NCBI GenBank assembly: GCA_963703315.1
Contig: OY969811.1
Span: forward strand, 4,480,001-4,544,000
Length of the DNA: 64,000 nt
From: an uncultured cyanobacterium
GTDB taxonomy: Bacteria > Cyanobacteriota > Cyanobacteriia > Pseudanabaenales > Pseudanabaenaceae
Reading direction: 5' to 3'
Positions 27,126-44,159 of this stretch are shown in pieces. Position numbers and translations under genes: made by a program. Under the pieces are notes generated by a model. The model saw only the letters and a list, made by a program, of their open reading frames with translations, was not told the DNA's origin and searched no databases. Each line of letters starts with the position of its first letter. Position 1 is the stretch's first letter.

Positions 27126-28079
27126 CTAGCTAAGTGCCAATAGTTCAGGATCTTGGAACAGCGCCGTACTCAGGTAACGTTCGCCAAAACTAGGTTGAAT
27201 CATCACGATCATTTTACCTGCATTCTCTGGACGTTTAGCAATTTGGATTGCGGCATAAAGCGCTGCGCCACTAGAAATTCCTGAAAGCAAGCCTTCTTCT
27301 CTAGCTAGTCTGCGTCCGTAGATGATCGCCTGTTCATCGGTGACAGGAATAACTTCATCAATCAATTCCGTTTTCAAAACTTCAGGCACAAATCCCGCAC
27401 CGATACCTTGAATTTTGTGAGGACCTGGGCGACTACCCGCTAATACTTGACTGTTGGCTGGTTCGACAGCGATCGCCTTAAACTCTGGCTTGCGTGCTTT
27501 AATTACTTCCGCAACCCCTGTAATCGTACCGCCAGTTCCCACACCCGAAATTAAGAAATCAACCTGTCCATCGGTATCTTCCCAAATCTCTTCGGCTGTA
27601 GTTTTACGATGAATAGAAGGATTAGAAGGATTACGAAACTGTTGCAGCATATAGGCATCAGGAGTACTTTCGGTAATTTCCTTAGCGCGACGGATTGCCC
27701 CCCCCATGCCTTCGCTACCTGTAGTTAGTTCCAGTTCGGCTCCATAGGCGCGTAACATCGATCGCCTCTCAATGCTCATCGTTTCAGGCATAGTCAGGAT
27801 CAATCGATATCCCTTAGCCGCAGCGACCATCGCCAAAGCAATGCCTGTATTGCCCGAAGTTGGCTCTACCAAAATCGTTTTATTCGGTGCAATTAAGCCC
27901 TGATCCTCTGCTTCTTGGATCATGTTTACGCCGATGCGATCTTTAACAGATGCGGCAGGATTCATGCTTTCCAGTTTGACGATAATTCTTGCCACACACC
28001 CTTCAGCCTTAGGAATGCGTTGCAATTCAACTAGGGGCGTACGACCGACTAATTCTGTAATATTATTGGCAATTTTCAT
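27126..28079 (-). CDS. cysK: Cysteine synthase A
   Basis: [11 protein letters not shown] (PLP lysine), PTSGNTG, GVGTGGT, HKIQGIG. Confidence 0.97.
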
Positions 28080-28286
28080 AGATAAAAGCTTAAATGATTG
28101 CGGGTAAATGAGCTTGTAGTCAACTTTAGAGCATTTTTGATGTCTTGGAAAATTAGCGATCGCCACTTTTATGCCCCAAAAGCTACACACACTAACTCTT
28201 TTCGGCTTTAATAGGGATATTGCGATCGCAAAAAATTTTCACAACATCATCACAAACTTATTAATTAACCATTAAGTAACTTAATT

Positions 28287-28694
28287 ATGGCTGCTACTTT
28301 AAAAGATTTTTTAGAAGAATGTCACACTCTCGGCTTAGTCCGCCTGATCGTCACCAGTGATGCGGGTGTGCTGGAAGCAAGGGTAAATATCGAGAAGCTA
28401 TTTTACGCGGAACTCCCCAAGGGCAAGTATGCGAATATGCATTCCGAACACATCGAGTTTCACCTAAACATGGACAAAATTACCGATGTCCGCTTTGAAA
28501 CCGCCGAAGCCAAACGCGGCAATTTCACCACCTACGCCGTCCGTTTCCTCGATGCCAATGACAAGCCCCAAATGAGTGCTTTCCTACAATGGGGTAAACC
28601 AGGGGAATATGCTGAAGGTCAAGTCGAAGCATGGGCTGCCCTCAAAGACAAGTACGGCGAAACTTGGAAGCCTGAGCCTGTTGAGAGTATATAA
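28287..28694 (+). CDS. ChuX/HutX-like putative haem-binding protein
   Basis: LGLVRLIV, GKYANM, EFHL motifs recalled from cyanobacterial HutX-like proteins. Confidence 0.6.
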   Translation: MAATLKDFLEECHTLGLVRLIVTSDAGVLEARVNIEKLFYAELPKGKYANMHSEHIEFHLNMDKITDVRFETAEAKRGNFTTYAVRFLDANDKPQMSAFLQWGKPGEYAEGQVEAWAALKDKYGETWKPEPVESI

Positions 28695-28741
28695 ATATTT
28701 TTGAGATGATTGGTAAAAATACCCAGAGCTATTAAATTCTC

Positions 28742-30043
28742 ATGAAAATACTAAGGGAAATAAGTCGTGGTGGTTTTGGTCGAGTTGAGCTAGTTGAATT
28801 AGATACAAGTAGTATTGTTGCTAGAAAAGTATTTGATCCTGTTCCTAGTATTTTAGACGCATCTGAACTACCAAAGTTGAAAAAGCGATTTCAAAGAGAA
28901 GTCAAAGTCCAAAAGTCACTAAGTAGTGATTATTTTATGTCAGTTCTTGATGCTGATCTTGATGCTGAAACCCCTTGGTTTACTATGCCACTTGCAGATC
29001 GAAACCTTTCGGAAGAACTAGAGGAATCTCGTAAAAATGGTAATATCCCTCTAGAAGCATTGTCAGACATTCTAAATGCGCTAGAAGAACTTCATTCACT
29101 CGGCTATGTTCATCGCGATCTTAAGCCTCAAAACATCCTTTTTCATGAAAATCGTTGGAAGTTATCAGATTTTGGTTTAGTACTTCCTGTTTCAGGTGCT
29201 ACTACCAAATTGACATCTATTGATTCATCTTGGGGAACTATGGGCTACTGTGCTCCAGAACAGGCTGAAGACTTTCGTAATGCTACACCCAGCGTAGATA
29301 TTTATGCTTTTGGGTGCATACTACATGATCTATTTGCAGGATTTCCTCGTGTACCTTATCAACGTTATACAATACAACATCCTGTAGGCATGATAATTGA
29401 AAAATGTACAGAGATAGAACCCAAAAAGCGATTTAAAAATATTACTTCACTACGCGGTACACTTCTCAAGCTATTATCAGAATCGCAAAGTCTTACTCCT
29501 AGCCCTAGTGCTACAGAATGGGAAGGAAAACTGCAAAATCTATCTAATTGGAATATTCAACAATTAGAAGATTTTGCAAGATTTATGAAATCAACTCAAG
29601 ATGAATCTGATTTGTGGGTTGTATGTCGGGCAATTGATGAAGAAGTTTTGCGTACTCTCTGCTCAATAGATAGAGAACTTTGGCAATTAATAGCTCTAGG
29701 ATATTGTGATTGGTCACATGGCTCATTTAACTTCGACTACTGCGATGTGATTATCAGGAGATTGGAAGTGATTTTTGAGTTAGGCAATCTTGATGTCAAA
29801 TCATCTGCTGCTATAGCAAGTGCCACTTTAGGGTGGTCTCATCATCGCTGGTTTGTCATGGGAAAAGTTCTATTTATGCTGGGTGCAAATTTAGATAATT
29901 TGGTAGCACAGCGAATTGCAATAGAAATAAGTGTCGAAGAAGTTTACAAACAATTTATTTCTTGTGCAGAGTTTCTCAAACGAAGTGTCAATGATTACCA
30001 CCCTCAAATTGCTGAAGTTTTGATTGAGTATCAAAAAAAATAG
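28742..30043 (+). CDS. Soluble Hanks-type Ser/Thr protein kinase with unknown helical C-terminal domain
   Basis: RGGFGRV, ARK, HRDLKPQN, SDFG, GTMGYCAPEQ, DIYAFG; no TM segment seen. Confidence 0.9.
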   Translation: MKILREISRGGFGRVELVELDTSSIVARKVFDPVPSILDASELPKLKKRFQREVKVQKSLSSDYFMSVLDADLDAETPWFTMPLADRNLSEELEESRKNGNIPLEALSDILNALEELHSLGYVHRDLKPQNILFHENRWKLSDFGLVLPVSGATTKLTSIDSSWGTMGYCAPEQAEDFRNATPSVDIYAFGCILHDLFAGFPRVPYQRYTIQHPVGMIIEKCTEIEPKKRFKNITSLRGTLLKLLSESQSLTPSPSATEWEGKLQNLSNWNIQQLEDFARFMKSTQDESDLWVVCRAIDEEVLRTLCSIDRELWQLIALGYCDWSHGSFNFDYCDVIIRRLEVIFELGNLDVKSSAAIASATLGWSHHRWFVMGKVLFMLGANLDNLVAQRIAIEISVEEVYKQFISCAEFLKRSVNDYHPQIAEVLIEYQKK

Positions 30044-30102
30044 TTGTCTTCTAGTTGCATTTCAGTAAAACATCTTAAATCCTTAAAAGATTAAGATACC
30101 AA

Positions 30103-30219
30103 TTTGATTTTTGTGGAGTAGCGATCATGATGTTTTGGGTGTTGAGGAGGCGATCTCTGTTTGATTTTCATGAAGTGGCGATCGCGATTTTGGGTGTTGA
30201 GGGGGCGATCGCTGTTTGA
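30103..30219 (+). repeat. HIP1-punctuated cassette-junction repeat R1
   Basis: TTTGATTTTTGTGGAGTA-GCGATCAT-GATGTTTTGGGTGTTGAGGAG-GCGATCTC-TGTTTGATTTTCATGAAGTG-GCGATCGC-GATTTTGGGTGTTGAGGGG-GCGATCGC-TGTTTGA. Confidence 0.9.
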
Positions 30220-30237
30220 ATATTGTAAAATCAAATA

Positions 30238-30471
30238 ATGGGTAAGAAAGAAAAACTACTTGAACTCCTAAAAAACAGTCCCAACAATGTGACGTTTGGC
30301 GATATTCGTAAACTTTTAGAGCTAGAAGGTTTTGACTTGGATAGAATTACAGGTAGTCATCATATTTTCAAAAGAGATGAAGTAGTTCTAGTCATCCCAG
30401 TCCACAACAACCGAGTCAAGTCTGTATATGTTAAAAGAGTTGTAGAACTTATTGAAGGAGAACAATCATGA
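30238..30471 (+). CDS. hicA: HicA family toxin
   Basis: 77 aa, RITGSHHIF, IPVH; ATGA overlap with hicB. Confidence 0.88.
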   Translation: MGKKEKLLELLKNSPNNVTFGDIRKLLELEGFDLDRITGSHHIFKRDEVVLVIPVHNNRVKSVYVKRVVELIEGEQS

Positions 30472-30695
30472 AATATCCAATAGTGATTTATCCATGTGAA
30501 GAAGGTGGTTTTGTAGCTGAAATTCCTGCTTTAAAAGGATGTTTAGCTCAAGGTGAAACCCTAGAAGAAACCTTGCAAGAGTTAATTACAGTAAGAACTT
30601 TGTGGCTAGAGACAGCCCAAAAGCATGGTCAAAAACTTCCAGATGAAAGTAAGGCGATCGCTAGAGTAAAAGCATTAAGTGCGATCGCTGTTTGA
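30468..30695 (+). CDS. hicB: HicB family antitoxin (short form)
   Basis: EEGGFVAEIPALKGCLAQGETLEE; last codons AIAV* are supplied by the junction repeat. Confidence 0.88.
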   Translation: MKYPIVIYPCEEGGFVAEIPALKGCLAQGETLEETLQELITVRTLWLETAQKHGQKLPDESKAIARVKALSAIAV

Positions 30696-30742
30696 TTTTT
30701 GTGAAGTAGCGATCGCGATTTTGGGTGTTGAGGGGGCGGGCT
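30681..30742 (+). repeat. HIP1-punctuated cassette-junction repeat R2
   Basis: GCGATCGC-TGTTTGATTTTTGTGAAGTA-GCGATCGC-GATTTTGGGTGTTGAGGGG-GCG. Confidence 0.9.
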
Positions 30743-30804
30743 GTGTTAACAAAGTGACTCAATTGTTATAATCATTTCTACAACATGATTAAGTTCTAAT
30801 CCTA

Positions 30805-31020
30805 ATGTCAATAACCCTAGAAGAAAGAGTCGCAATCCTAGAAGCTGAAATATCCCTGATTAAGAACAAAGTGGAAAGTCCAACTGTCACAGTAAAACCT
30901 TGGTGGGAGCAAATCACGGGAACATTTGCTGACAGCCCAGACTATGACAAAGCCATGCAACTAGGCAAAAAATACCGTGAGTCATTGCGTAAGACATCAA
31001 CAAAGTCCCGCAAAAAATAG
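30805..31020 (+). CDS. Putative antitoxin partner of VapC
   Basis: 71 aa, LEERVAILE...PWWEQITGTF; stop abuts the PIN-domain toxin start. Confidence 0.7.
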   Translation: MSITLEERVAILEAEISLIKNKVESPTVTVKPWWEQITGTFADSPDYDKAMQLGKKYRESLRKTSTKSRKK

Positions 31021-31341
31021 ATGTACATACTCGATACAGACCATCTCAGCGTATTAGATCGTGGTGGGACTACTGCTCAGCGTCTTCTTACTCGATTAGC
31101 AAAAGTCAATCCTAATCAAGTCTCAGCAACCATCATCAGCTACGAAGAACAGACAAGAGGGTGGTTAAGCCACATTTCCAAAGCACGCAATCTTGAAGCG
31201 CAAGTTGAAATTTACAAACAACTTAAAAGACAAATTAATAATTACTGCACTATTCCAATAATTGATTTTGATATAGAAGCCGCAAATGAATTCCAACGAA
31301 TCAGAAAGTTATACCCTCGCCTCGGCACAATGGACTTAAAA

Positions 31342-33057
31342 CCCACATTCCGCTCGTAATGGAAGAAAAAAAACAATTACGAAACAGGAGCAGGGAGCAA
31401 ATAGTAGCGTTGGCAGGAGGGAGAAAAGAAATTCAAAATGTGAATCCGAAGAGGAGACAAATTAACAACTTGAGTGAGTCCCTGAAAAGAAACTAAATGA
31501 ACCGCCATAAAACATTGAAAAATCCAACGCAAAGTTGGCGAATTAGTGGGTTTACCCAATTGATTAGGAATAGTATCTTGAGCGATGGCTAAGGCAAGTC
31601 TGAGTTGACGTTGGGCTAAATTATAAACGAGCAAGCACAGTGCCATAATCATGCCCAAAGCCTCAATGCGTTTAGCAGACTTGAGAAAAACACTCGAAGT
31701 AAAAAACAAAGGATCTTTGAGGAAACGAAAACCACGCTCAGTGCTCTGCTGAGCCTTGTATTCCCGTAAAGCATCATCAGCCGTGAATTGTAAGGAATCA
31801 AGAATATTCGTGGCTAAAATAAACCTGCCACAACGCTGTTGCTGAGCCAAGATTTCTGAGTCTATAGGAATCACCGTTGCAGTAATCCGATAACTAATGC
31901 TGGTGGGTATAGCATCAGGTTGTGGCTTACCCCGTTTCGCATAATGTGGTTTTTCTACTGCCTGAATATGGTCGAGTTGATGCCATTTCATCTTGGTTGA
32001 TAATTTTTCAGCAGCAGCGATCGCGTCAGCAGCACAGGCAAAATCTTGTCCCGCCAAAGTGTGTAAATCTTGATGACATTTTTGCTGGACTTGCTCAAGC
32101 TTTTTGTCTAACTTTTTGATGTCTGATTTACGTCTTGCTTGGCTATCAACTAAAATCCATCTCTGTCTTACACCACCATACTCACTCACAGTTTCGGCTG
32201 TCCTGTATCCCTTAAATTTACTTTCTTGTAGGTCAGTTGTGCTTGACACTAAGTCACTTGCAGTTTTGATGCTTAATGGCACTCGGGTTAGCCATTTTAG
32301 TCCTGTCATTGCTACCAGATTTTCTTCACTGTATAGCGCTGCATCGCCTACGCATATTCCCTCAAATGTCCACTGGGTTTTGAATTCTTGTAATAGTCCT
32401 GCAAATCTTGCTTTGTCGGCTTGATTTCCACTTACCACTTCCATCATTACGGGAATGTCTCCATCTCCTACACAGATCAGGTTCATCATAAATTGCTTCA
32501 GGTCGGGGCGATGGTCGCGTGAATATCCGTGTGTGATTTCGATACTCCCTTCTTCCTCTCTGCCATATTCCCCATCTACGTGAAATGAGGTTGAGTCTAT
32601 ATGTCCTGTTTCTACCTTGACATCGTATTTCGCTACTGCTTTCAGGCTGATTCCTAAAAATGTCTCACTCAGTCCTGCTTCATGTAAGTCATCCAGTACT
32701 TTACCGATGCGGTCATCATTGATTTGTTCGGCTGTTATCCCTTCCCCCAATAAGTGCTCGGTTGGTTTTCCTTCAAAGAATTTACCAAACATATACAGGG
32801 GTGCTGATACAAATCCTAATCCATTCAGGAGCATGGCTTTGACAATTACTCCTGCACTTACTTTTTCTCTTGAGCTTCTCCCGATTATCGTGTTTATTTC
32901 TTCCACGATTCCCATCTCGTCGATGATTCCTGCCACGATCCCTAGATGGTCTAGGTTCGTTACTTTCATCTCTGTATTAATACCTGCCTCCTCTTTTTGC
33001 TCTTGTGCCTTACCTTTAGTTAATTATTTTACCCTTCCATTACGAGCGGAATGTGGG
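31342..33057 (-). mobile_element. IS1634-family insertion sequence, 1716 bp
   Basis: Perfect 24-bp terminal inverted repeats CCCACATTCCGCTCGTAATGGAAG (31342-31365 / 33034-33057) and 6-bp target duplication TTAAAA (31336-31341 / 33058-33063). Confidence 0.95.
31377..32969 (-). CDS. IS1634-family DDE transposase
   Basis: LDHLGIVAG, HIDSTSF, GYSRDHRPDLKQ, GRFILATN, ERGFRFLKDP. Confidence 0.93.
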   Translation of the reverse strand: MKVTNLDHLGIVAGIIDEMGIVEEINTIIGRSSREKVSAGVIVKAMLLNGLGFVSAPLYMFGKFFEGKPTEHLLGEGITAEQINDDRIGKVLDDLHEAGLSETFLGISLKAVAKYDVKVETGHIDSTSFHVDGEYGREEEGSIEITHGYSRDHRPDLKQFMMNLICVGDGDIPVMMEVVSGNQADKARFAGLLQEFKTQWTFEGICVGDAALYSEENLVAMTGLKWLTRVPLSIKTASDLVSSTTDLQESKFKGYRTAETVSEYGGVRQRWILVDSQARRKSDIKKLDKKLEQVQQKCHQDLHTLAGQDFACAADAIAAAEKLSTKMKWHQLDHIQAVEKPHYAKRGKPQPDAIPTSISYRITATVIPIDSEILAQQQRCGRFILATNILDSLQFTADDALREYKAQQSTERGFRFLKDPLFFTSSVFLKSAKRIEALGMIMALCLLVYNLAQRQLRLALAIAQDTIPNQLGKPTNSPTLRWIFQCFMAVHLVSFQGLTQVVNLSPLRIHILNFFSPSCQRYYLLPAPVS

Positions 33058-33168
33058 TTAAAAATTGCAGCGATCGCCATTGTTAACAATGCGATCGTGT
33101 TAACCAGAAACACTTCTGATTTTGGGCAAATTGCAAACTTACAAATAGAAGATTGGACACAGTAAATT

Positions 33169-33200
33169 GATCGCTGTTTGATTTTTGTGGAATGGCGAGC
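33169..33200 (+). repeat. HIP1-punctuated cassette-junction repeat R3
   Basis: GATCGC-TGTTTGATTTTTGTGGAATG-GCGAGC, 3 nt after the vapC stop. Confidence 0.85.
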
Positions 33201-33277
33201 ATTTGGCAAACGGCGTGCTAAAAGTTGCTTATTGGTTATAAACTCATTGGCTATAATAATTTGTATACGCTAAAAGC

Positions 33278-33553
33278 ATGAAATTTGAATGGGACGCAAA
33301 TAAACAACAACAAAATCAACAAAAGCATAAGATTTCCTTTGAAGAAGCAACAACCGTTTGGACTGATCCATTAGCTTTAATTGCTCCTGATCCAACTCAT
33401 TCAATAACAGAACAAAGAGAATGGATTATTGGACAATCATACGAAAGTCGTATATTAGTAGTTGTTTTCACAATGAGAGAAGAGATAATTAGAATTATCA
33501 GTGTTAGACCTGCCAATAAATCGGAAAGAAAAAAGTATGTCGAATCAACCTGA
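33278..33553 (+). CDS. brnT: BrnT family toxin
   Basis: MKFEWDANK...N..KHKISFEEA...EQR...IG...VVFT.R...IRIISVR.A...ER..Y. Confidence 0.9.
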   Translation: MKFEWDANKQQQNQQKHKISFEEATTVWTDPLALIAPDPTHSITEQREWIIGQSYESRILVVVFTMREEIIRIISVRPANKSERKKYVEST

Positions 33554-33806
33554 ATTTCCTTTTGCTAATGCCAGAAGAATTAGTGAATCAGAAGTAATAG
33601 CTGCCGAGCAAGCTATTAAACAACAATTTGGAATTAATCTCACACAGCATAAAGATTCAACTAAAAATGAAACAGAAAATTATCAATCAATTTCTATTCA
33701 GCTAGATCCTAAAATAATTGCTTGGGCAAAAGCTGAAGCTACAAAAAAAGGAGTTAAATATCAAGCAATCATTAATGAAGTACTTCTCAAGGCGATCGCT
33801 TTTTGA
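33537..33806 (+). CDS. brnA: BrnA family antitoxin
   Basis: ISIQLDPKII.W.K...YQAIINEVL; overlaps brnT; ends AIAF* inside the junction repeat. Confidence 0.85.
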   Translation: MSNQPEFPFANARRISESEVIAAEQAIKQQFGINLTQHKDSTKNETENYQSISIQLDPKIIAWAKAEATKKGVKYQAIINEVLLKAIAF

Positions 33807-33825
33807 TTTTGATGAAGGGGCGATC
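33792..33825 (+). repeat. HIP1-punctuated cassette-junction repeat R4
   Basis: GCGATCGC-TTTTTGATTTTGATGAAGGG-GCGATC. Confidence 0.8.
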
Positions 33826-33884
33826 TCTTTACCTCATGTTAGGATTTAACAAAGTAAATATACTTGTACACAATTAATTCTCTT

Positions 33885-34106
33885 ATGAACACCCTAGTAG
33901 AGATTAAAACAGCGATCGCTAGATTGTCTGATGACGAAACATCAGCATTATTATCGTGGCTACAAGAACGCTCAGAAGATGACTGGGATAAACAAATAAA
34001 GAAAGACTCTGAGCTGGGTAAATTAGACAAAATTATCCAACGAACAAAAGCCCATATCGCCGCCAATCGCGTCAAGAAACTGGATGAAGTCATTAACAAC
34101 TCCTGA
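33885..34106 (+). CDS. Putative antitoxin
   Basis: EIKTAIARL...WDKQIKKD..GKLD; overlaps the downstream RelE-like toxin. Confidence 0.65.
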   Translation: MNTLVEIKTAIARLSDDETSALLSWLQERSEDDWDKQIKKDSELGKLDKIIQRTKAHIAANRVKKLDEVINNS

Positions 34107-34347
34107 TTTTTGGGAGGCTTACGTAGCTTTGCCGCCATCCATCAAAGCCCAAGCCAAAAAAACTTATCAAATCTGGCTAAGCGATCGCTTTTATCCATCC
34201 CTACATTTCAAAAAAGTCAATCAAAATCTATGGTCTATTCGCATCAATAGAGAATATCGAGCTTTAGCCTTAAAAGAAGGAGATGATTATTACTGGTTTT
34301 GGATCGGTTTGCATGACGAATACGACAGATTAATTGATGAAAATTAA
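34084..34347 (+). CDS. RelE/ParE-superfamily toxin
   Basis: TTPDFWEAY..LP, YPSLHFKKV, WSIRINREYRAL, WFWIGLHDEYD. Confidence 0.8.
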   Translation: MKSLTTPDFWEAYVALPPSIKAQAKKTYQIWLSDRFYPSLHFKKVNQNLWSIRINREYRALALKEGDDYYWFWIGLHDEYDRLIDEN

Positions 34348-34348
34348 T

Positions 34349-34428
34349 ATTGAGGAGGCGATCGCTGTTTGATTTTTGTATGGAGTGGCGATAGTGATTT
34401 TAGGTGTTGAGGTGCGATCGCTGTTTGA
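34349..34428 (+). repeat. HIP1-punctuated cassette-junction repeat R5
   Basis: TTGAGGAG-GCGATCGC-TGTTTGATTTTTGTATGGAGTG-GCGATAGT-GATTTTAGGTGTTGAGGT-GCGATCGC-TGTTTGA. Confidence 0.9.
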
Positions 34429-34446
34429 ATATTGTAAAATCAAATA

Positions 34447-34675
34447 ATAGGGTAAGAAAGAAAAACTACTTGAACTCCTAAAAAACAGTCCCAACAACGT
34501 GACGTTTGGCGATATTCGTAAACTTTTAGAGCTAGAAGGTTTTGACTTGGATAGAATTACAGGTAGTCATCATATTTTCAAAAGAGATGAAGTAGTTCTA
34601 GTCATCCCAGTCCACAACAACCGAGTCAAGTCTGTATATGTTAAAAGAGTCGTAGAACTCATAGAAGGAGAATAA
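34447..34675 (+). pseudogene. hicA: Second hicA copy with destroyed start codon
   Basis: Near-identical to 30238-30471 but AATAATG-GGT has become AATAATAG-GGT (in-frame TAG 34448-34450); only an internal GTG at 34499 remains. Confidence 0.8.
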
Positions 34676-34677
34676 TT

Positions 34678-34905
34678 ATGAGATATCCAATAGTAATTTA
34701 TCCCTGTGAAGAAGGTGGTTTTGTTGCTGAAATTCCAGCTTTAAAAGGATGTTTAGCTCAAGGTGAAACCCTAGAAGAAACTTTGCAAGAGTTAATTACA
34801 GTAAGAACTTTGTGGCTAGAGACAGCCCAAAAGCATGGTCAAAAACTTCCAGATGAAAGTAAGGCGATCGCTAGAGTAAAAGCATTAAGTGCGATCGCTG
34901 TTTGA
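34678..34905 (+). CDS. hicB: HicB family antitoxin, second copy
   Basis: Differs from the 30468-30695 protein only at residue 2 (K to R). Confidence 0.88.
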   Translation: MRYPIVIYPCEEGGFVAEIPALKGCLAQGETLEETLQELITVRTLWLETAQKHGQKLPDESKAIARVKALSAIAV

Positions 34906-35011
34906 TTTTTGTGAAGTAGCGATCGCGATGCTTTTTGTTGTTGATGGGGCGATCGTGCTATTTGGGTTGAGATTAGGGGCGATCGCTAGTTGATTTTGGT
35001 GGAGTGGCGAT
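34891..35011 (+). repeat. HIP1-punctuated cassette-junction repeat R6
   Basis: Five GCGAT(CGC) cores separated by linkers such as TGTTTGATTTTTGTGAAGTA and TAGTTGATTTTGGTGGAGTG. Confidence 0.9.
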
Positions 35012-35042
35012 TATTATGTTTATTGTAGTTAGGTAGACCCAA

Positions 35043-35300
35043 ATGCCAACAGTTTTATATGTAAAGGGCTGGCGATTTTTCTTTTATTCAGATGAAGGAA
35101 ACGAGCCAATTCATATTCATGTTCAGAAAGGAGACAGCGAATGTAAATATTGGCTAGACATTGATCTATACGAAATCCGTGAGGCTTACTCCTATGGAAT
35201 GTCATCACGCGATACGAGAGAAGTTAAGAAAATAATTTTACAAAACTTTGATGAAATAGTAGAAGAATGGCAAGCATTCAGGAGTCAGCAAAATGGATAA
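35043..35300 (+). CDS. DUF4160 family protein (predicted TA component)
   Basis: MPTV...GWRFFFYSDE..EPIHIHV...CKYWL. Confidence 0.8.
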   Translation: MPTVLYVKGWRFFFYSDEGNEPIHIHVQKGDSECKYWLDIDLYEIREAYSYGMSSRDTREVKKIILQNFDEIVEEWQAFRSQQNG

Positions 35301-35538
35301 GCAATACAACGTATCGAATATAGAATTTAGTGGCGAATGGATAATTCTATCGGTTAATGAAGAAACCTATCAAATCCCAATTGTTCAAGCTTCTAAAAAA
35401 CTTGCTCAAGCAACAGATATTGAACGTAAGATGTACCGCATTTCTCCATCAGGTTATGGGATTCATTGGTATGCGATCGATGAAGATTTAACAACTAAAG
35501 GACTTATTAAGTTAGCCACAGTTGCCCAAACAGCTTAA
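35293..35538 (+). CDS. DUF2442 family protein (predicted TA component)
   Basis: L..AT..ER...ISPSGYGIHWYAIDEDL; overlaps the DUF4160 gene. Confidence 0.8.
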   Translation: MDKQYNVSNIEFSGEWIILSVNEETYQIPIVQASKKLAQATDIERKMYRISPSGYGIHWYAIDEDLTTKGLIKLATVAQTA

Positions 35539-35545
35539 ACAATGG

Positions 35546-35578
35546 GCGATCGCTGTTTGATTTTTGTGAAGTAGCGAT
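35546..35578 (+). repeat. HIP1-punctuated cassette-junction repeat R7
   Basis: GCGATCGC-TGTTTGATTTTTGTGAAGTA-GCGAT. Confidence 0.88.
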
Positions 35579-35644
35579 ATTACACCCATTAAATTTGTTT
35601 TTTGCTAGACTACATACCAGATACTCATCACTTTGAGGTTATTT

Positions 35645-35872
35645 ATGAGATCAATAGAGCTACTTACGAAAGAATTATTATCTCTCCCTAGTATTTCTAG
35701 AGCGCTATTAGCAGAAAAACTAGTCGAAAGCCTAGAATTTGACACCGATCCAACTGTTCAGGCAACATGGACAGCCGAAGCAAAAAAAAGACGTGATGCA
35801 GTCCGTGATAGTTCTGTTCAAACAATCGAAGGAGAAGATGCTCTAGCTCAGGTAAGACGGTTACTTGCGTAA
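35645..35872 (+). CDS. Addiction-module antitoxin (TIGR02574-like)
   Basis: LSLP..SRALLAEKLVESL...W.AEAKKR; TAATG overlap with the toxin. Confidence 0.8.
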   Translation: MRSIELLTKELLSLPSISRALLAEKLVESLEFDTDPTVQATWTAEAKKRRDAVRDSSVQTIEGEDALAQVRRLLA

Positions 35873-36162
35873 TGAAGTATGTATTTCATCCCGAAGCACT
35901 TGCTGAATATTCTGATGCAGTTCAATATTATGCTGAACAGAGAACAGAAATTGCCCAAGCATTTATCAATGCAATTGAAGATGCAATTTTTCGGATTAAG
36001 GAATCTCCTAATCGTTACGCCGCAATTGATGAAGATATTCGACGATGCATGACACGAAAATTCCCCTACGGAATCCTCTATACGATTGAGGAAGATTATA
36101 TTCTGATCTTAGCCGTGATGCATTGCAGTCGAGAAGTTGGATATTGGAAAAATAGGAAGTAA
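35872..36162 (+). CDS. ParE/RelE family toxin
   Basis: FHPEALAEY..A..YY, RRC...KFPYGILY, ILAVMH.SR..GYW. Confidence 0.88.
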   Translation: MKYVFHPEALAEYSDAVQYYAEQRTEIAQAFINAIEDAIFRIKESPNRYAAIDEDIRRCMTRKFPYGILYTIEEDYILILAVMHCSREVGYWKNRK

Positions 36163-36163
36163 G

Positions 36164-36173
36164 GCGATCGCTG
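36164..36173 (+). repeat. Minimal junction R8 (single HIP1 plus TG)
   Basis: GCGATCGCTG 1 nt after the parE stop. Confidence 0.5.
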
Positions 36174-36200
36174 ATTACAAAATTTACATTGATATAACCC

Positions 36201-36229
36201 TTCGCATTTAACGTGCCACGTTATATGAT
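36201..36229 (+). promoter_or_regulatory. higBA promoter with palindromic operator
   Basis: TTCGCA-17 nt-TATGAT; the spacer contains the perfect inverted repeat TAACGTG-C-CACGTTA (36209-36223). Confidence 0.6.
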
Positions 36230-36257
36230 ACGAATATAAACTTACTATTCCTTAGTC

Positions 36258-36539
36258 GTGATCCGAAGCTTTAAGGATAAAGAAACTCAAAAAATCTTTG
36301 AGAGACTGCGATCGCGTAAATTGCCATCAGAAATTCAACAAGTAGCCTTACGAAAATTGCGTATGCTAAATCAGTCACCCACTCTTCAAGAACTTCGTAT
36401 TCCACCAGCAAATCGATTAGAACGACTAAGTGGCGATCGTGAAGGTCAATATAGCATTCGGATTAACAATCAATGGCGTATTTGCTTTGAATGGCAAAAT
36501 GATGACGCTTTCAATGTGGAAATTGTTGATTATCATTGA
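36258..36539 (+). CDS. higB: HigB toxin (plasmid maintenance killer family)
   Basis: MIRSFKDKET, PPANRLERLSGDREGQYSIRINNQWRICF, EIVDYH. Confidence 0.93.
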   Translation: MIRSFKDKETQKIFERLRSRKLPSEIQQVALRKLRMLNQSPTLQELRIPPANRLERLSGDREGQYSIRINNQWRICFEWQNDDAFNVEIVDYH

Positions 36540-36548
36540 GGAATCAAA

Positions 36549-36845
36549 ATGAACGAAGATAAACTTAATCCAATTCATCCTGGGGAAGTTCTTTTAGAAG
36601 AATTTCTTAAACCGATGAACTTGAGTCAAAATCAACTAGCGTTAGCTCTTCGAGTTCCCGCCCGACGTATTAACGAAATCATTCACGGTAAACGACGAAT
36701 CACCACAGATACGGCAATTCGCTTAGCATTCTATTTCAATATGTCCCCCAGATTTTGGCTTGGATTACAAATGGATTACGATTTAGATATAGCTGAAGAT
36801 GAAGTTGGAGAAAAACTAAAAATGGAAGTAGCAGTTTTTAGCTAA
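36549..36845 (+). CDS. higA: HigA antitoxin (HTH)
   Basis: PIHPGEVLLEEFL, RINEIIHGKRRIT, FWLGLQ..YDL. Confidence 0.93.
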   Translation: MNEDKLNPIHPGEVLLEEFLKPMNLSQNQLALALRVPARRINEIIHGKRRITTDTAIRLAFYFNMSPRFWLGLQMDYDLDIAEDEVGEKLKMEVAVFS

Positions 36846-36846
36846 A

Positions 36847-36912
36847 GCGATCGCTGTTTGATTTTTTGAAGTGGCGATCGCCCAGCATTGCACTAATTGT
36901 GAGGGCGATCGC
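36847..36912 (+). repeat. HIP1-punctuated cassette-junction repeat R9 (end of array 1)
   Basis: GCGATCGC-TGTTTGATTTTTTGAAGTG-GCGATCGC-23 nt-GCGATCGC. Confidence 0.88.
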
Positions 36913-36934
36913 TTGTGAGAGATAGAACTTGTGA

Positions 36935-39202
<2,268 letters not shown>

Positions 39203-39260
39203 TTAAATGATACATGGCTTAGTTAATCTGATTCGTATCGGTTTTATCCAGAAAATAGCG

Positions 39261-39366
39261 ATCGAGCTTCACCTAAAATATAGACAAAATTACCGATGTT
39301 CGCTTTGAAACCAATTCCACTACCACGCGATCCGCTCCAACGATGCCGATGATAAGCCCCAAATGA
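39261..39366 (+). pseudogene. Decayed internal fragment of the hutX-like gene (copy of 28452-28575)
   Basis: ATCGAGCTTCACCTAAAATATAGACAAAATTACCGATGTTCGCTTTGAAACC...GATAAGCCCCAAATGA aligns by eye to 28452-28575, with a frameshift and an ~18-bp deletion. Confidence 0.85.
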
Positions 39367-39476
39367 TTCTGTAATAAGGTAAGATAACCCACTGAGAGTC
39401 TGTAGGAAATATACTATGTTTTTAAGCTATATTTAAATATTAGATAAGTCTATAAAGAAAATAACCAGTTATATAT

Positions 39477-40736
39477 ATGGTAAAAGCTGTTATGTCCAAT
39501 CTAAAACTTTTTGAGGAAGAAAAAAAGGATTTAACTTTCTTTGAAGAAAAAGAAGATACAGATAGTGATTCTGATGATCTCCAAAAACTATTAGAAGAGA
39601 TTGCCGAAATCCTCGTGACTGGGACTGATTGGACAACAAGAACTTTACTAGATCAACTTGTGAGGGAAAATATTCAATTAAATCCAAGATTTCAAAGACG
39701 TGATGCGTGGAATATCGTACGAAAAAGTAGATTTATAGAATCAATTATTCTTGGATTTCCTATCCCACACATAGTTTTAGCATCTAATCAAAAAGAACGA
39801 GGAAAATTCGTTGTTCTTGATGGTAAGCAACGCCTACTTACGATTCTTCAATTTTACGGTAAAAGCACGGCGACAAAAAATAATAATTTCTCTTTGAGAG
39901 GATTAGAATTCAGGAAAGATCTAGATGGTCTTTCGTATAAAGATTTAGAAAATAATCCAGACTATGCTTCTATAGTTGCACCTCTTGATAATCAGACTAT
40001 TCGCACTATCTTGATCCGAAATTGGCATACTGAATCTTTTCTCTATAAAATCTTTTTACGTCTTAATGTTGAAAGTACGCCTTTATCACCTCAAGAACTT
40101 AGACAGGCACTTCATCCAGGTGATTTTGTCAACTTTTTAGACGATCAATCGGTTGCTAGTCAATCGTTGAGGCGAATTTTTAAGTCAAAAGAGCCTGATT
40201 TTAGGATGAGAGACAATGAATTGCTTATGAGGTTTATGGGATTTCATTATTTCTTACCTGAGTATCGTGGCACATTAAAAGCTTTTCTAGATATGACTTG
40301 TAAAAGGCTTAATGAAGAATGGGAAAATAAAGCAGACGATATTAAGGAAGCCGCTAATCAGTTTGAATACGCTATAGAAGTAACTATTGAGATATTTGGA
40401 GAAAGACATTTCTCCCGTCTTTGGCTAGATAAATCACAAACATATCGCAGTCAATTTAATAGAGCGATTTTAGATGCTATGGTTTTCTATTTTTCTGATC
40501 CTATTATTAGAAATGTAGCAGTAACTAGAAAAGAATCAATAAATACCGCATTCAAGGAACTATGTTCTTCTACTGGAAATGGATTTAGAGAATCTGTCGA
40601 GGGTAATACAAAAAATATTGGTGAAACCTTTACTCGCTTATCTTTATGGGGGAAAACTCTTAGAGATATATTAGATATAGATTTCAATGTACCTGATTTA
40701 ATTGAAAACCGCATAGTCTTCACCAGTTTACATTAG
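39477..40736 (+). CDS. DUF262 (GmrSD N-terminal/ParB-like) domain protein
   Basis: P.FQR..W, FIESI..G.PIP, VLDGKQRL, IFLRLN...PLSPQELR. Confidence 0.85.
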   Translation: MVKAVMSNLKLFEEEKKDLTFFEEKEDTDSDSDDLQKLLEEIAEILVTGTDWTTRTLLDQLVRENIQLNPRFQRRDAWNIVRKSRFIESIILGFPIPHIVLASNQKERGKFVVLDGKQRLLTILQFYGKSTATKNNNFSLRGLEFRKDLDGLSYKDLENNPDYASIVAPLDNQTIRTILIRNWHTESFLYKIFLRLNVESTPLSPQELRQALHPGDFVNFLDDQSVASQSLRRIFKSKEPDFRMRDNELLMRFMGFHYFLPEYRGTLKAFLDMTCKRLNEEWENKADDIKEAANQFEYAIEVTIEIFGERHFSRLWLDKSQTYRSQFNRAILDAMVFYFSDPIIRNVAVTRKESINTAFKELCSSTGNGFRESVEGNTKNIGETFTRLSLWGKTLRDILDIDFNVPDLIENRIVFTSLH

Positions 40737-40750
40737 TTTCTATTTAGAAT

Positions 40751-41344
40751 ATGTCGATTTCAAGAAGGTTTCGTGATTTAGAGAGAGAGCTAAGTAGACT
40801 AAAAAAGCAATTTCTACCTAAAATTAGTCCTACTGGCTCATATTCTGATAGAAAGCTGTCCTTAACTATTGCTTATAGAGTTTTAGCTCATGCTGAGATT
40901 GAATCCTATCTTGAGAATAGAGCTGAGGAAGTAGTTCTCTATGCAAAGAGAAAATGGGATGTTGATGGCAATTCTAGTCGCGCATTGGTTGCTATTGTGG
41001 CTTTTGCAGAAAACAAGCGAACTGCATCTGCGCCATTCTTAAATGATAAAATAAGATTTGCAGTTGATATTTTTCAGACTGCAATCCGAGAAAATCATGG
41101 AATAAAAGAAAAGAATATTCTGAATTTGATGTTGCCAATAGGTATAGATAATAATGATTTAGATACTGTTTTCTTGGCTAATATGAATACGTTTGGAGAA
41201 GATAGAGGTCTTGTAGCGCATTCATCAGCAACACTATATAGAGTAACAAATTTACCAGATCCTGCTACTGAGTTAAATAGAATACAGCAAATTACTAATG
41301 ACCTTAGAAATTTAGATCAGCTAATAAGTGCTTTGATGGAATAA
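40751..41344 (+). CDS. HEPN-domain protein (RiboL-PSP/MAE_28990-like)
   Basis: LAHAEIESYLE helix and Rx4H motif RGLVAH; 14 nt after the DUF262 gene. Confidence 0.75.
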   Translation: MSISRRFRDLERELSRLKKQFLPKISPTGSYSDRKLSLTIAYRVLAHAEIESYLENRAEEVVLYAKRKWDVDGNSSRALVAIVAFAENKRTASAPFLNDKIRFAVDIFQTAIRENHGIKEKNILNLMLPIGIDNNDLDTVFLANMNTFGEDRGLVAHSSATLYRVTNLPDPATELNRIQQITNDLRNLDQLISALME

Positions 41345-41352
41345 AGAATGTA

Positions 41353-41499
41353 GTGATCGCTGTTTGATTTTTGTAGAGAGGTGATCGTGATGTTTTTGGG
41401 TGTTGAGAGGGCGATCACTGTTTCATTTTTGTGGAATGGCGATCGTGATATTGAAGTGTTGAGGGGGCGATCGCTGTTTGATTTTTGATTGGGGCGATC
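41353..41499 (+). repeat. HIP1-punctuated cassette-junction repeat R10 (longest)
   Basis: Six HIP1-like cores with alternating linkers A (TGTTTGATTTTTGTRGARDG) and B (GATNTTTGGGTGTTGAGRGG). Confidence 0.9.
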
Positions 41500-41536
41500 A
41501 TGTTAATCTATAAAATATAAATTAGGGAACAAAGAT

Positions 41537-41728
41537 ATGACTGCTGTAGTACAAGAGCTTCTAAATACCTTTGATAATCTCACATACGCAGAAAGACTAG
41601 ACTTATTATCAGAAATTCTAAGACGAACAGTTGACTTAGAATTTGAACCATTATCTGATGAAGAACTAACATTGAACGCCGAAGACCTGTTTCTAACGTT
41701 GGACGAAGAAGAGTTAGCCGATGAGTAG
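41537..41728 (+). CDS. Putative acidic antitoxin
   Basis: 63 aa, very acidic C-terminus; overlaps the MazF-like toxin. Confidence 0.7.
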   Translation: MTAVVQELLNTFDNLTYAERLDLLSEILRRTVDLEFEPLSDEELTLNAEDLFLTLDEEELADE

Positions 41729-42056
41729 CCCAGAACGTGGAGAAGTTTGGCTAGTCGATCTTGGCTATGTCGCAAAAGTCAGACCATGCTTAGTTATTAG
41801 TATCCCAGCCCTAGACAGCGATCGCGCATTAGTAACCCTAGTTCCACATACAACGAGTTTGCGCGATTGCAGATTTGAAGTAAAAGTCAAAGCTAAATTT
41901 TTGCGAGAAGGCGCATTTGACGTACAAAATCTCATCACAATCCCTCATGCCAAACTTTTACGCAAACTAGGAGAGCTAACATCAGAGCAAATGGAAGACT
42001 TAGAAGATGTCTTACTCGTATGGTTAGGATTTGAATCTGAAAAAGACGAAGACTAA
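41721..42056 (+). CDS. mazF: PemK/MazF family toxin
   Basis: RGEVWLVDLG..AKVRPCLVIS, LVPHTT, KLGEL. Confidence 0.88.
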   Translation: MSSPERGEVWLVDLGYVAKVRPCLVISIPALDSDRALVTLVPHTTSLRDCRFEVKVKAKFLREGAFDVQNLITIPHAKLLRKLGELTSEQMEDLEDVLLVWLGFESEKDED

Positions 42057-42077
42057 GCATAGAAAACTTTGAAAAAG

Positions 42078-42147
42078 GCGATCGCTGTTTGATTTTTGTG
42101 GAGAGGCGAGCGTGATTTTTGGGGTTGAGATGGGCAATCGCTGTTTA
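42078..42147 (+). repeat. HIP1-punctuated cassette-junction repeat R11
   Basis: GCGATCGC-TGTTTGATTTTTGTGGAGAG-GCGAGCGT-GATTTTTGGGGTTGAGATGG-GCAATCGC-TGTTTA. Confidence 0.88.
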
Positions 42148-42166
42148 AACATTGTAAAATCAAGTT

Positions 42167-42341
42167 GTGGGTAAGAAAAAATAAACTACTTGAACTCCTA
42201 AAAAATAGCCCCACGTGACGTTTGCAGATATTCGTAAACTTTTAGAGCTAGAAAGTTTTGACTTGGATAGAATTACAGGCAGTCACCATATTTTCAAAAG
42301 AGATGAAGTAGTTTTCGTCATCCCAGTTCATAACAACCGAG
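42167..42341 (+). pseudogene. hicA: Third hicA copy, frameshifted and truncated, no hicB
   Basis: Aligns to the 30238-30416 region; GTG start, extra base giving an early TAA, small deletion, ends after CATAACAACCGAG. Confidence 0.85.
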
Positions 42342-42535
42342 CAGCAATTCTCATTATGGAAAATTAACGGCGTTGCACACACTCATAATGATCAAGTAAA
42401 AATAGGAAAGGATTTCTGATTTTTGCGTTTGAGGTAAAAAAGTAGTAACCGAATCGAAATCTGCAACATTAATCATCACTAACTCCCTTTTACTTTTATT
42501 GGTAACATAGATTAAGAAATATATTGAAATAACTC

Positions 42536-43743
<1,208 letters not shown>

Positions 43744-43901
43744 AGAAGAGCCGCTATAATATATAACTGTCGCCACTTGCATTAGGATCAATCAAAATCC
43801 AAGAAGCAAGTGGCGGCGTGAATCGCTGCAATTCATCTTCTGGTTTTGTGTCCGAACAAGACTGATGACAGGTATAGTTCAAATAAATTTAGGGAATTGT
43901 T

Positions 43902-44159
43902 ATGGCAAAAGTTGAAATATACACATGGCGCTTGTGTCCTTTTTGTATTAGAGCAAAGCATCTGCTCAATAGCAAAGGGGTCAAGTACACCGAATATGTG
44001 ATTGATGGTGATGAATCAGCGCGATCGGCAATGGTGGCTAGAGGTTCCGATGGTAAGCGTTCTGTACCGCAAATTTTTATCAATGATCAACATATCGGCG
44101 GCTGTGATGCCATCCATGAATTAGACCATCAAGGTAAACTTGATCCTTTACTAAATTAA
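43902..44159 (+). CDS. grxC: Glutaredoxin 3
   Basis: CPFC, SVPQIFI, IGGCD. Confidence 0.92.
   Translation: MAKVEIYTWRLCPFCIRAKHLLNSKGVKYTEYVIDGDESARSAMVARGSDGKRSVPQIFINDQHIGGCDAIHELDHQGKLDPLLN

Follow-up and report, generated by a model that had tools for sequence, protein, structure and literature searches.

Toxin-antitoxin cassettes jointed by HIP1 repeat tracts, including a duplicated hicAB, in a cyanobacterium of the family Pseudanabaenaceae

When a gene cassette occurs twice in one small region, bounded each time by the same short palindrome, does the bounded segment move as a unit, and by what means? This question is raised by a stretch of 64,000 nucleotides (the window) from an uncultured cyanobacterium of the family Pseudanabaenaceae (contig OY969811.1, positions 4,480,001 to 4,544,000), in which a hicAB toxin-antitoxin (TA) cassette is found at two places between copies of the HIP1 palindrome. 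According to PMC13756078, most cyanobacteria contain HIP1 in great excess, and what it does has been an open question for about 30 years. An earlier note on the window read the cassette as duplicated from HIP1 to HIP1, and took this as the best internal evidence that the repeat-to-repeat unit is what moves. The sequence comparisons presented here indicate that this unit behaves as a mobile unit, and that the tract of repeats matters, HIP1 alone being insufficient. The duplication itself is confirmed to be real.

The genome is a single contig of 4.57 Mb with 8231 HIP1 sites (1.8 per kb). An array of about nine TA or defence cassettes, with repeat tracts as joints, occupies the interval from a hutX-like gene to icd; its order is kinase, hicAB, vapBC, brnTA, ParE-like pair, hicAB, DUF4160/DUF2442, addiction-module ParE and higBA. 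Each tract is made of units of 27-28 bp, consisting of a HIP1 core and a G/T-rich spacer, which alternate between types A and B. Positions are those of the window, and features are on the + strand unless stated otherwise. The two hicAB cassettes, copy 1 (30205-30719, bounding HIP1 sites included) and copy 2 (34414-34929), agree in 503 of 516 aligned columns (97.5%), in keeping with the near-identity over about 515 bp that had been noticed earlier. Both start with HIP1 and identical cassette-specific bases and end with an identical repeat unit and a second HIP1. Their neighbours differ, as had also been stated: copy 1 has a kinase (PF00069) on its left and, on its right, a vapC/PIN unit interrupted by an insertion sequence (IS), while copy 2 lies between a ParE-like pair and DUF4160/DUF2442. 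The joints are tracts at 30100-30219 (left) and 30681-30740 (right) for copy 1 and at 34358-34428 and 34891-35012 for copy 2. When the limits of identity are mapped by pairwise alignment, high identity stops at the repeats; a looser identity continues for another ~60 bp beyond the left limit (about 84%, counted on the alignment), because the flanks there are copies of a longer HIP1-based repeat.

The cassette has the architecture of a type II HicAB system. In copy 1, hicA (30238-30471, an intact open reading frame (ORF) of 77 aa, PF07927 at 4e-10) is followed by an overlapping hicB (30468-30695, PF15919 at 5e-8), which is short, its 75 aa covering positions 1-65 of the 123-position Pfam model. 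In copy 2 the start codon (ATG) of hicA is broken by an extra A, and the gene is shortened by two codons through a substitution that creates an earlier stop; hicB (34678-34905) is intact and differs from that of copy 1 by one residue. Ten of the 13 differences between the copies are clustered in 87 bp (30441-30527; shuffle p about 1e-4), and the remaining 428 bp hold 3 differing sites. In this patch most relatives agree with copy 1, and no donor for the version of copy 2 was found among the relatives compared. The hicAB of the closest relatives is at most 94% identical to the source copies. Judged by this distribution of differences, the copies are mosaics, with short-patch recombination inside the cassette. 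Copy 2 could most simply have either of two origins. A second hicAB allele may have arrived with or beside the DUF4160 unit and then been partly homogenised with copy 1 in the one array, or a duplicate may have been given an 87-bp foreign patch. The toxin of copy 2 would have lost its start codon afterwards. Either origin requires short-patch homologous recombination, and neither would make the duplication proof of a single HIP1-to-HIP1 move.

A third, older copy had been proposed at 42134. It does start there, at a HIP1 with one mismatch, but only a remnant is present: 212 bp of hicA at 88.7% identity, frameshifted, without hicB and with its right end not at a repeat. No further hicAB copy over 44 bp was found in the 4.57-Mb genome.

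The stronger evidence comes from the comparison across genomes. Every one of the 18 genus genomes examined has matches to parts of the array, and the comparison drew on 40 regions. The cassettes recur there at 87-96% identity and keep the same ends, but their order at the hutX-like and icd anchors varies. At icd, the order in one relative (G003) is icd, X, higBA, ParE-like, brnTA. At the other anchor, three relatives begin with hutX and DUF2281 and continue as X, ParE-like, MazF pair, vapBC, higA, addiction-ParE (G007), as HNH, hicAB, DUF4160, ParE-like (G012), or as HNH, hicAB, vapBC, DUF4160 (G016). With rows identical letter for letter dropped, hicAB ends at a HIP1 or near-HIP1 core at 9 of 9 distinct left (hicA-side) and 14 of 15 distinct right (hicB-side) ends, and it has at least seven left and at least five right neighbours. 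In another relative (G002) the kinase is followed by a tract and a vapB-like gene, with hicAB absent, which is an empty copy-1 site; a contig of sequencing run X10 shows the same arrangement. The fixed ends, varied neighbours and empty site uphold the earlier proposal that the repeat-to-repeat unit moves. The rank given to the duplication as its best evidence does not stand. The adjacencies hicAB-vapBC and hicAB-DUF4160 are each found in relatives, and because both neighbour pairs pre-exist there and the copies are mosaic, the duplication alone is weak evidence for a mobile unit.

The ends of homology between loci allow the role of HIP1 to be narrowed. When tracts are masked, 59 of the 88 homology ends that do not continue fall no more than 10 bp from a tract or HIP1 core, whereas such positions make up 6.4% of the arrays (hicAB matches are counted twice; IS edges and contig ends are excluded). 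In an unmasked control of 60 loci, homology ends fall at HIP1 cores near arrays in 64 of 139 cases (34 of 71 distinct places) and away from arrays in 25 of 183 (12 of 147 distinct places), against a background of 9.3%. The off-array figure rules out HIP1 as a genome-wide breakpoint. Because ends are enriched near arrays and not away from them, HIP1 marks breakpoints only in the tract setting. The earlier wording 'HIP1 to HIP1' is therefore too simple for a genome so rich in HIP1, where breaks are not enriched off arrays and the array begins without HIP1 on its hutX side.

The tracts have a regular structure. A strict census gives 136 HIP1-to-HIP1 units genome-wide, where the 743 adjacent core pairs would lead one to expect about 29; both this census and the masked breakpoint count are lower bounds, as the tract finder misses degenerate units (33167, 35546, 42078). 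The units fall into 59 clusters. All 11 clusters of at least three units are co-oriented, and the 10 of them that were annotated hold TA-like cassettes, each locus having its own spacer dialect; the cluster at 0.48 Mb holds a DUF29 gene and unassigned ORFs only. Unit length is 26-34 bp, always between whole HIP1 cores, and tracts range from none to about nine A units. Strong tract expansion is seen in one relative locus (L062:8111-8590), with about nine A/B repeats after a GmrSD-HEPN cassette. Directly 3' of a cassette, type A is the first unit at 29 of the 30 right ends that could be parsed (of 52 examined), while the unit ahead of the fixed cassette start may be A or B (for the ParE-like pair, four A, two B and one none). 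Permutation gives no support for linkage between units and the cassette they flank (right A units, p 0.13; left units, p 0.10 and 0.64). Most loci with the pattern (about 122 of 150, counted by title) come from records titled Pseudanabaena, so the source organism is probably a member of that genus; viral contigs give 0 matches. In plasmids, the only match to a cassette query was a Pseudanabaena record, covering 21% of its length.

Other properties of the tracts give little. Folding produces only HIP1-HIP1 pairing around an open loop, and the z-scores are uninformative because they follow from the palindromes. An Rfam search over 28000-44000 returned two chance-level matches, none convincing, and a promoter and terminator scan found no excess over shuffles (15 against 18.9; 4 against 4.5). 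Array polarity follows no clear pattern relative to the replication strand, the skew being irregular.

The units are also part of the coding sequence. An A unit gives both hicB and brnA their last codons and stop, and hicB homologues of other families have their own codons at the point where the A unit ends hicB here. The hicB tail itself runs from HIP1 to HIP1 (30654-30688). Its 27-bp stretch between two HIP1 sites is detached in 9 places in relatives, a count from which a record that is probably chimeric and three chance matches in genomes are excluded; by eye, 4 of the 9, all in one genome (G014), begin exactly at the inner HIP1. Reuse of this tail as a spacer unit is seen at L058/L031 (G014), L032 and L159, suggesting a route to new repeat dialects.

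How then could the cassettes be exchanged? IntI is absent from the source genome (best TIGR02249 match 32 bits against a cut-off of 265), as is any serine resolvase. Since the orders are shuffled and the genome has no integrase, the cell's own recombination likely does the swapping. We consider it probable that host homologous recombination acts at the tracts and resolves at HIP1 cores, and that this would happen probably during natural transformation. The reaction steps that we infer are as follows. Incoming DNA from a related strain would pair through a tract, a shared cassette, or both, and the paired cassette or block would be swapped into the array, with exchanges likely resolving at HIP1 cores. 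Later loss or gain of units from HIP1 to HIP1 would alter tract length and phase. The ORFs of comEC, dprA and three full C5-methyltransferases are open in the genome, and recA is located within the window. In Synechococcus PCC 7002, homologous HIP1 sites raised integration up to 7-fold, and by more than 100-fold if methylated (10.1101/2024.09.10.611283).

Several observations weigh against this account. Among the assembled contigs, no recombination event or intermediate was observed. The units are only ~78% identical between genomes and 83% within one genome, and such diverged units are a poor substrate for RecA. Of the detached hicB tails, 5 of 9 have 12-40 extra hicB-like bases (by eye). The array starts at the hutX-like stop codon with no HIP1, and fusions or truncations free of HIP1 are found where vapC runs into higB (L050), where a higA-like gene runs into hicB (L054), and at the end of copy 3. 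The remaining 29 of the 88 non-continuing homology ends are not near a tract or HIP1 core; moreover, as the loci were picked by similarity to the window and kin are not independent, the breakpoint figures are descriptions and not probabilities.

A further point concerns HIP1 itself. A sample of 400 genomes from the phylum contained hicAB homologues with 75-81% nucleotide identity in 19 genomes outside the genus, and in one genus of another family they belong to TA arrays whose joints are an unrelated ~80-bp repeat. This also counts against a tie to HIP1, since the DNA of these arrays is HIP1-poor (4-10 HIP1 sites per 19-20 kb) and repeat-jointed TA arrays are thus not tied to it. For the same reason, a homology-based mechanism is favoured over a HIP1-only enzyme. 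The loci in question (L116-L119, L121; family f19) carry arrays of PIN, HigB and hicAB, with the ~80-bp repeat in both orientations; the repeats form long imperfect palindromes adjoining the hicB stop. They look like a second, independent repeat-jointed cassette system.

A bolder proposal, which we put forward only tentatively, is that in Pseudanabaena-type cyanobacteria the arrays form a genome-wide cassette system free of integrase, in which strands are actually exchanged at the methylated HIP1 cores of polar tandem tracts by a host factor that recognises HIP1. If so, whatever DNA lies between two HIP1 sites, a gene's tail included, could be recruited as a cassette or new joint, and HIP1 would have a natural function together with a cassette platform parallel to integrons.

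It seems unlikely that a dedicated trans-acting factor performs the cutting and joining at HIP1 cores within tracts, the cassettes leaving as circles and reinserting. The cassette ends do lie at fixed HIP1 offsets whatever the unit phase, a joint with a single HIP1 exists, the polarity is strict, and HIP1 site-specific recombination is reported in PCC 7002 (Akiyama 1998, via PMC4390886). However, no candidate enzyme is found near the window arrays, and mosaic patches and HIP1-free joints would need homologous or illegitimate recombination regardless. PF00589 gives 3 matches in 2 ORFs, and tyrosine-recombinase-like ORFs are located at 1.75 and 4.37 Mb. The single Y1 transposase, at 0.35 Mb, is far from the window and not at an array, which rules out a REP/RAYT-like mover. 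One tyrosine-recombinase-like ORF (L083, 4367585-4368832) has a TetR-type N-terminus fused to a tyrosine-recombinase-like C-terminus that scores below the Pfam cut-off; it adjoins a three-unit array with brnTA and is divergent from a desaturase-like gene. By eye it appears to be without what we take to be the first catalytic Arg. Another (L082:1495-3018), an ORF of 507 aa with two tyrosine-recombinase matches in one frame, is far from large arrays.

It is quite improbable that the tracts are secondary, that is, self-expanding mini-repeats which colonised HIP1 at joints made by one-sided homology-facilitated illegitimate recombination. Such an origin would agree with the wide range of tract length, with flanking units that do not follow their cassette, with HIP1-free array starts, and with a different repeat filling the same role in another family. 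It agrees poorly with off-array HIP1 sites, which are not breakpoints, and with the empty hicAB site, which already carries a tract. In addition, hicB and brnA take their stop codons from the units, which are therefore part of the joint.

That the array is a cluster of attC sites lacking an integrase (CALIN), its cassettes moved by an integron integrase that acts in trans or has been lost, is very improbable, and this reading is already largely refuted. Its appeal comes from IntI above the TIGR02249 cut-off in 23 of 48 genus genomes, and from attC-like sites kept in the IntI-free source genome at 0.65 Mb (653037-653125) and 2.74-2.75 Mb (2735172-2747909), the latter adjoining HIP1 units. The co-oriented joints and shuffled cassette order of the array are also those used to recognise integrons and CALIN. 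However, an attC model built from 18 of the genus's own sites gave 17 matches in 9 of 13 held-out IntI loci and 0 matches in 28 other (non-IntI) sources, the window included; a simple attC box finder gave one match in the window, within the kinase ORF. Conversely, canonical attC sites, rather than HIP1 units, are found at the IntI loci of relatives, where 20 loci gave only 2 stray A-unit matches, both within ORFs. IntI as the mover is ruled out by its absence, the lack of attC in the window, and the absence of HIP1 units from the joints of IntI loci.

An assembly artefact fusing two strain haplotypes is hardly credible as the source of the duplication. In its favour, no contig of sequencing run X1 spans the array, the IS breaks contiguity, a shared 183-bp piece has a depth of 12.3, under twice the 9-10 of its flanks, and both adjacencies exist separately in relatives. 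Against it, the depths of the two alleles in the variable patch (6.4 and 5.4) sum to about the shared depth, depth is even (8-11) across the other cassettes, and the genome is one contig. The contigs of this run, which is possibly the source sample and hence not independent, contain both alleles, both right flanks and the left flank of copy 2, and stop 30 bp inside the identity limits of the duplication.

The remaining parts of the array can be described in order. The conserved left anchor is a gene of the ChuX/HutX family (28287-28694), at whose stop codon the differing first cassettes of relatives begin without HIP1; the Ser/Thr kinase cassette follows (28742-30043). To the right of copy 1 is the vapB-like and vapC (PIN) cassette (30805-33166), intact in relatives and split here by a DUF4277/DDE insertion sequence on the - strand (31342-33057), presumably IS1634-like, with ~23-bp inverted ends and a 6-bp target duplication. 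At least six further near-identical copies of this IS are present in the genome, and the site is empty in relatives. Terminal inverted repeats with a transposase of its own were not seen for any cassette; the only IS in the array is the one inside vapC, which is missing there in relatives. Next are a degenerate A unit with the brnT/brnA cassette (33167-33806), whose brnA stop is given by the next unit, and an A unit with the ParE-like pair (33792-34357). Copy 2 is followed by the DUF4160/DUF2442 cassette (35013-35545) and an A unit with the addiction-module antitoxin/ParE cassette (35546-36163). A single bare HIP1 (36164-36171, no strand assigned) separates the latter from higB/higA (36172-36846); both these ends carry tracts in relatives. 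Terminal units lead to the 3' end of icd (36847-36912). This abutment of the hutX-anchored array on icd (36847-36935) is found in 0 of 11 icd loci of relatives examined, which suggests a rearrangement at the array end.

A second array lies past icd, with a GmrSD-N and HEPN cassette (39477-41344), a repeat tract (41353-41499), a small ORF with PemK/MazF (41500-42077), and a tract with the hicA remnant (42078-42341). A DUF2281-type cassette is the first member at both the hutX-like and icd anchors (28694; 39250-39310; L044, L046, L051, L056, L059, L061), and it starts about 25 bp ahead of HIP1.

Unit-bounded cassette DNA is also found outside the genus: records titled Spirulina, Cronbergia and Planktothrix (L151, L170, L202), the last being a metagenome-assembled genome, hold such DNA that is up to 85-93% identical to Pseudanabaena loci. 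These matches suggest transfer of cassettes across genera. A 99% match to window positions 30637-31303 at the end of a Bacteroidetes-binned contig (L177:1-669) is probably due to mis-assembly or mis-binning.

The arrays provide natural, replicated cases of gene gain and loss that end at HIP1 cores, with off-array HIP1 sites as an internal negative control; HIP1-directed recombination is therefore directly testable with defined donors. Host swapping at HIP1 joints would likely give a long-unexplained palindrome a testable job. The arrays would also explain how TA and defence genes are stocked and turned over without an integrase, in a form invisible to attC-based tools. In the literature covered, from which most subscription papers fall outside, no description of cassette arrays jointed by HIP1 tracts was found.

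It is useful to compare the array with known systems. Like type II HicAB modules, the cassette has HicA (PF07927) upstream of an overlapping HicB-like gene, but HicB is without the C-terminal half of the Pfam model and the hicA of copy 2 is broken. The dif modules of Acinetobacter (pdif/XerCD), as described in the sources covered, share shuffled small modules, short boundary sites and a host function acting on them. On the plasmids that carry them, the pdif sites consist of XerC/XerD boxes whose orientation alternates. In contrast, the joints here are co-oriented, chromosomal and based on HIP1; no search for Xer boxes was made.

Among elements tied to HIP1, SDR5 of Nostocaceae (Elhai 2008, via PMC4390886, PMC5861425 and PMC13756078) is described as a 21-nt element within one HIP1, between bases 3 and 4. 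It resembles the present spacers in having about 20 nt and an association with HIP1; by that description it differs from our units, which lie between whole HIP1 cores, are tandem and variable in sequence, and bound cassettes. Rearrangements bounded by HIP1 are known from the smtB deletion (Gupta 1993, as cited in PMC13756078 and PMC4390886), from HIP1 recombination in PCC 7002, and from HIP1-enhanced transformation (Kamoku and Nielsen), and there too HIP1 cores end the segments lost or gained. As described, those are single events or laboratory constructs, whereas here tandem tracts organise many natural arrays and plain HIP1 sites elsewhere are not breakpoints.

The array also resembles integrons and CALIN, which, following the account of Cury et al. 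(2016, PMC4889954), share TA-rich arrays of small genes, one-directional joints, an order shuffled between strains and the lack of an integrase nearby. The joints here, however, are tandem HIP1-to-HIP1 units and not attC, and the genus's real attC arrays are separate and adjoin IntI. The cassettes are mostly two-gene operons, and in other arrays of the source genome they are found in either orientation. The array works like an integron array without being one.

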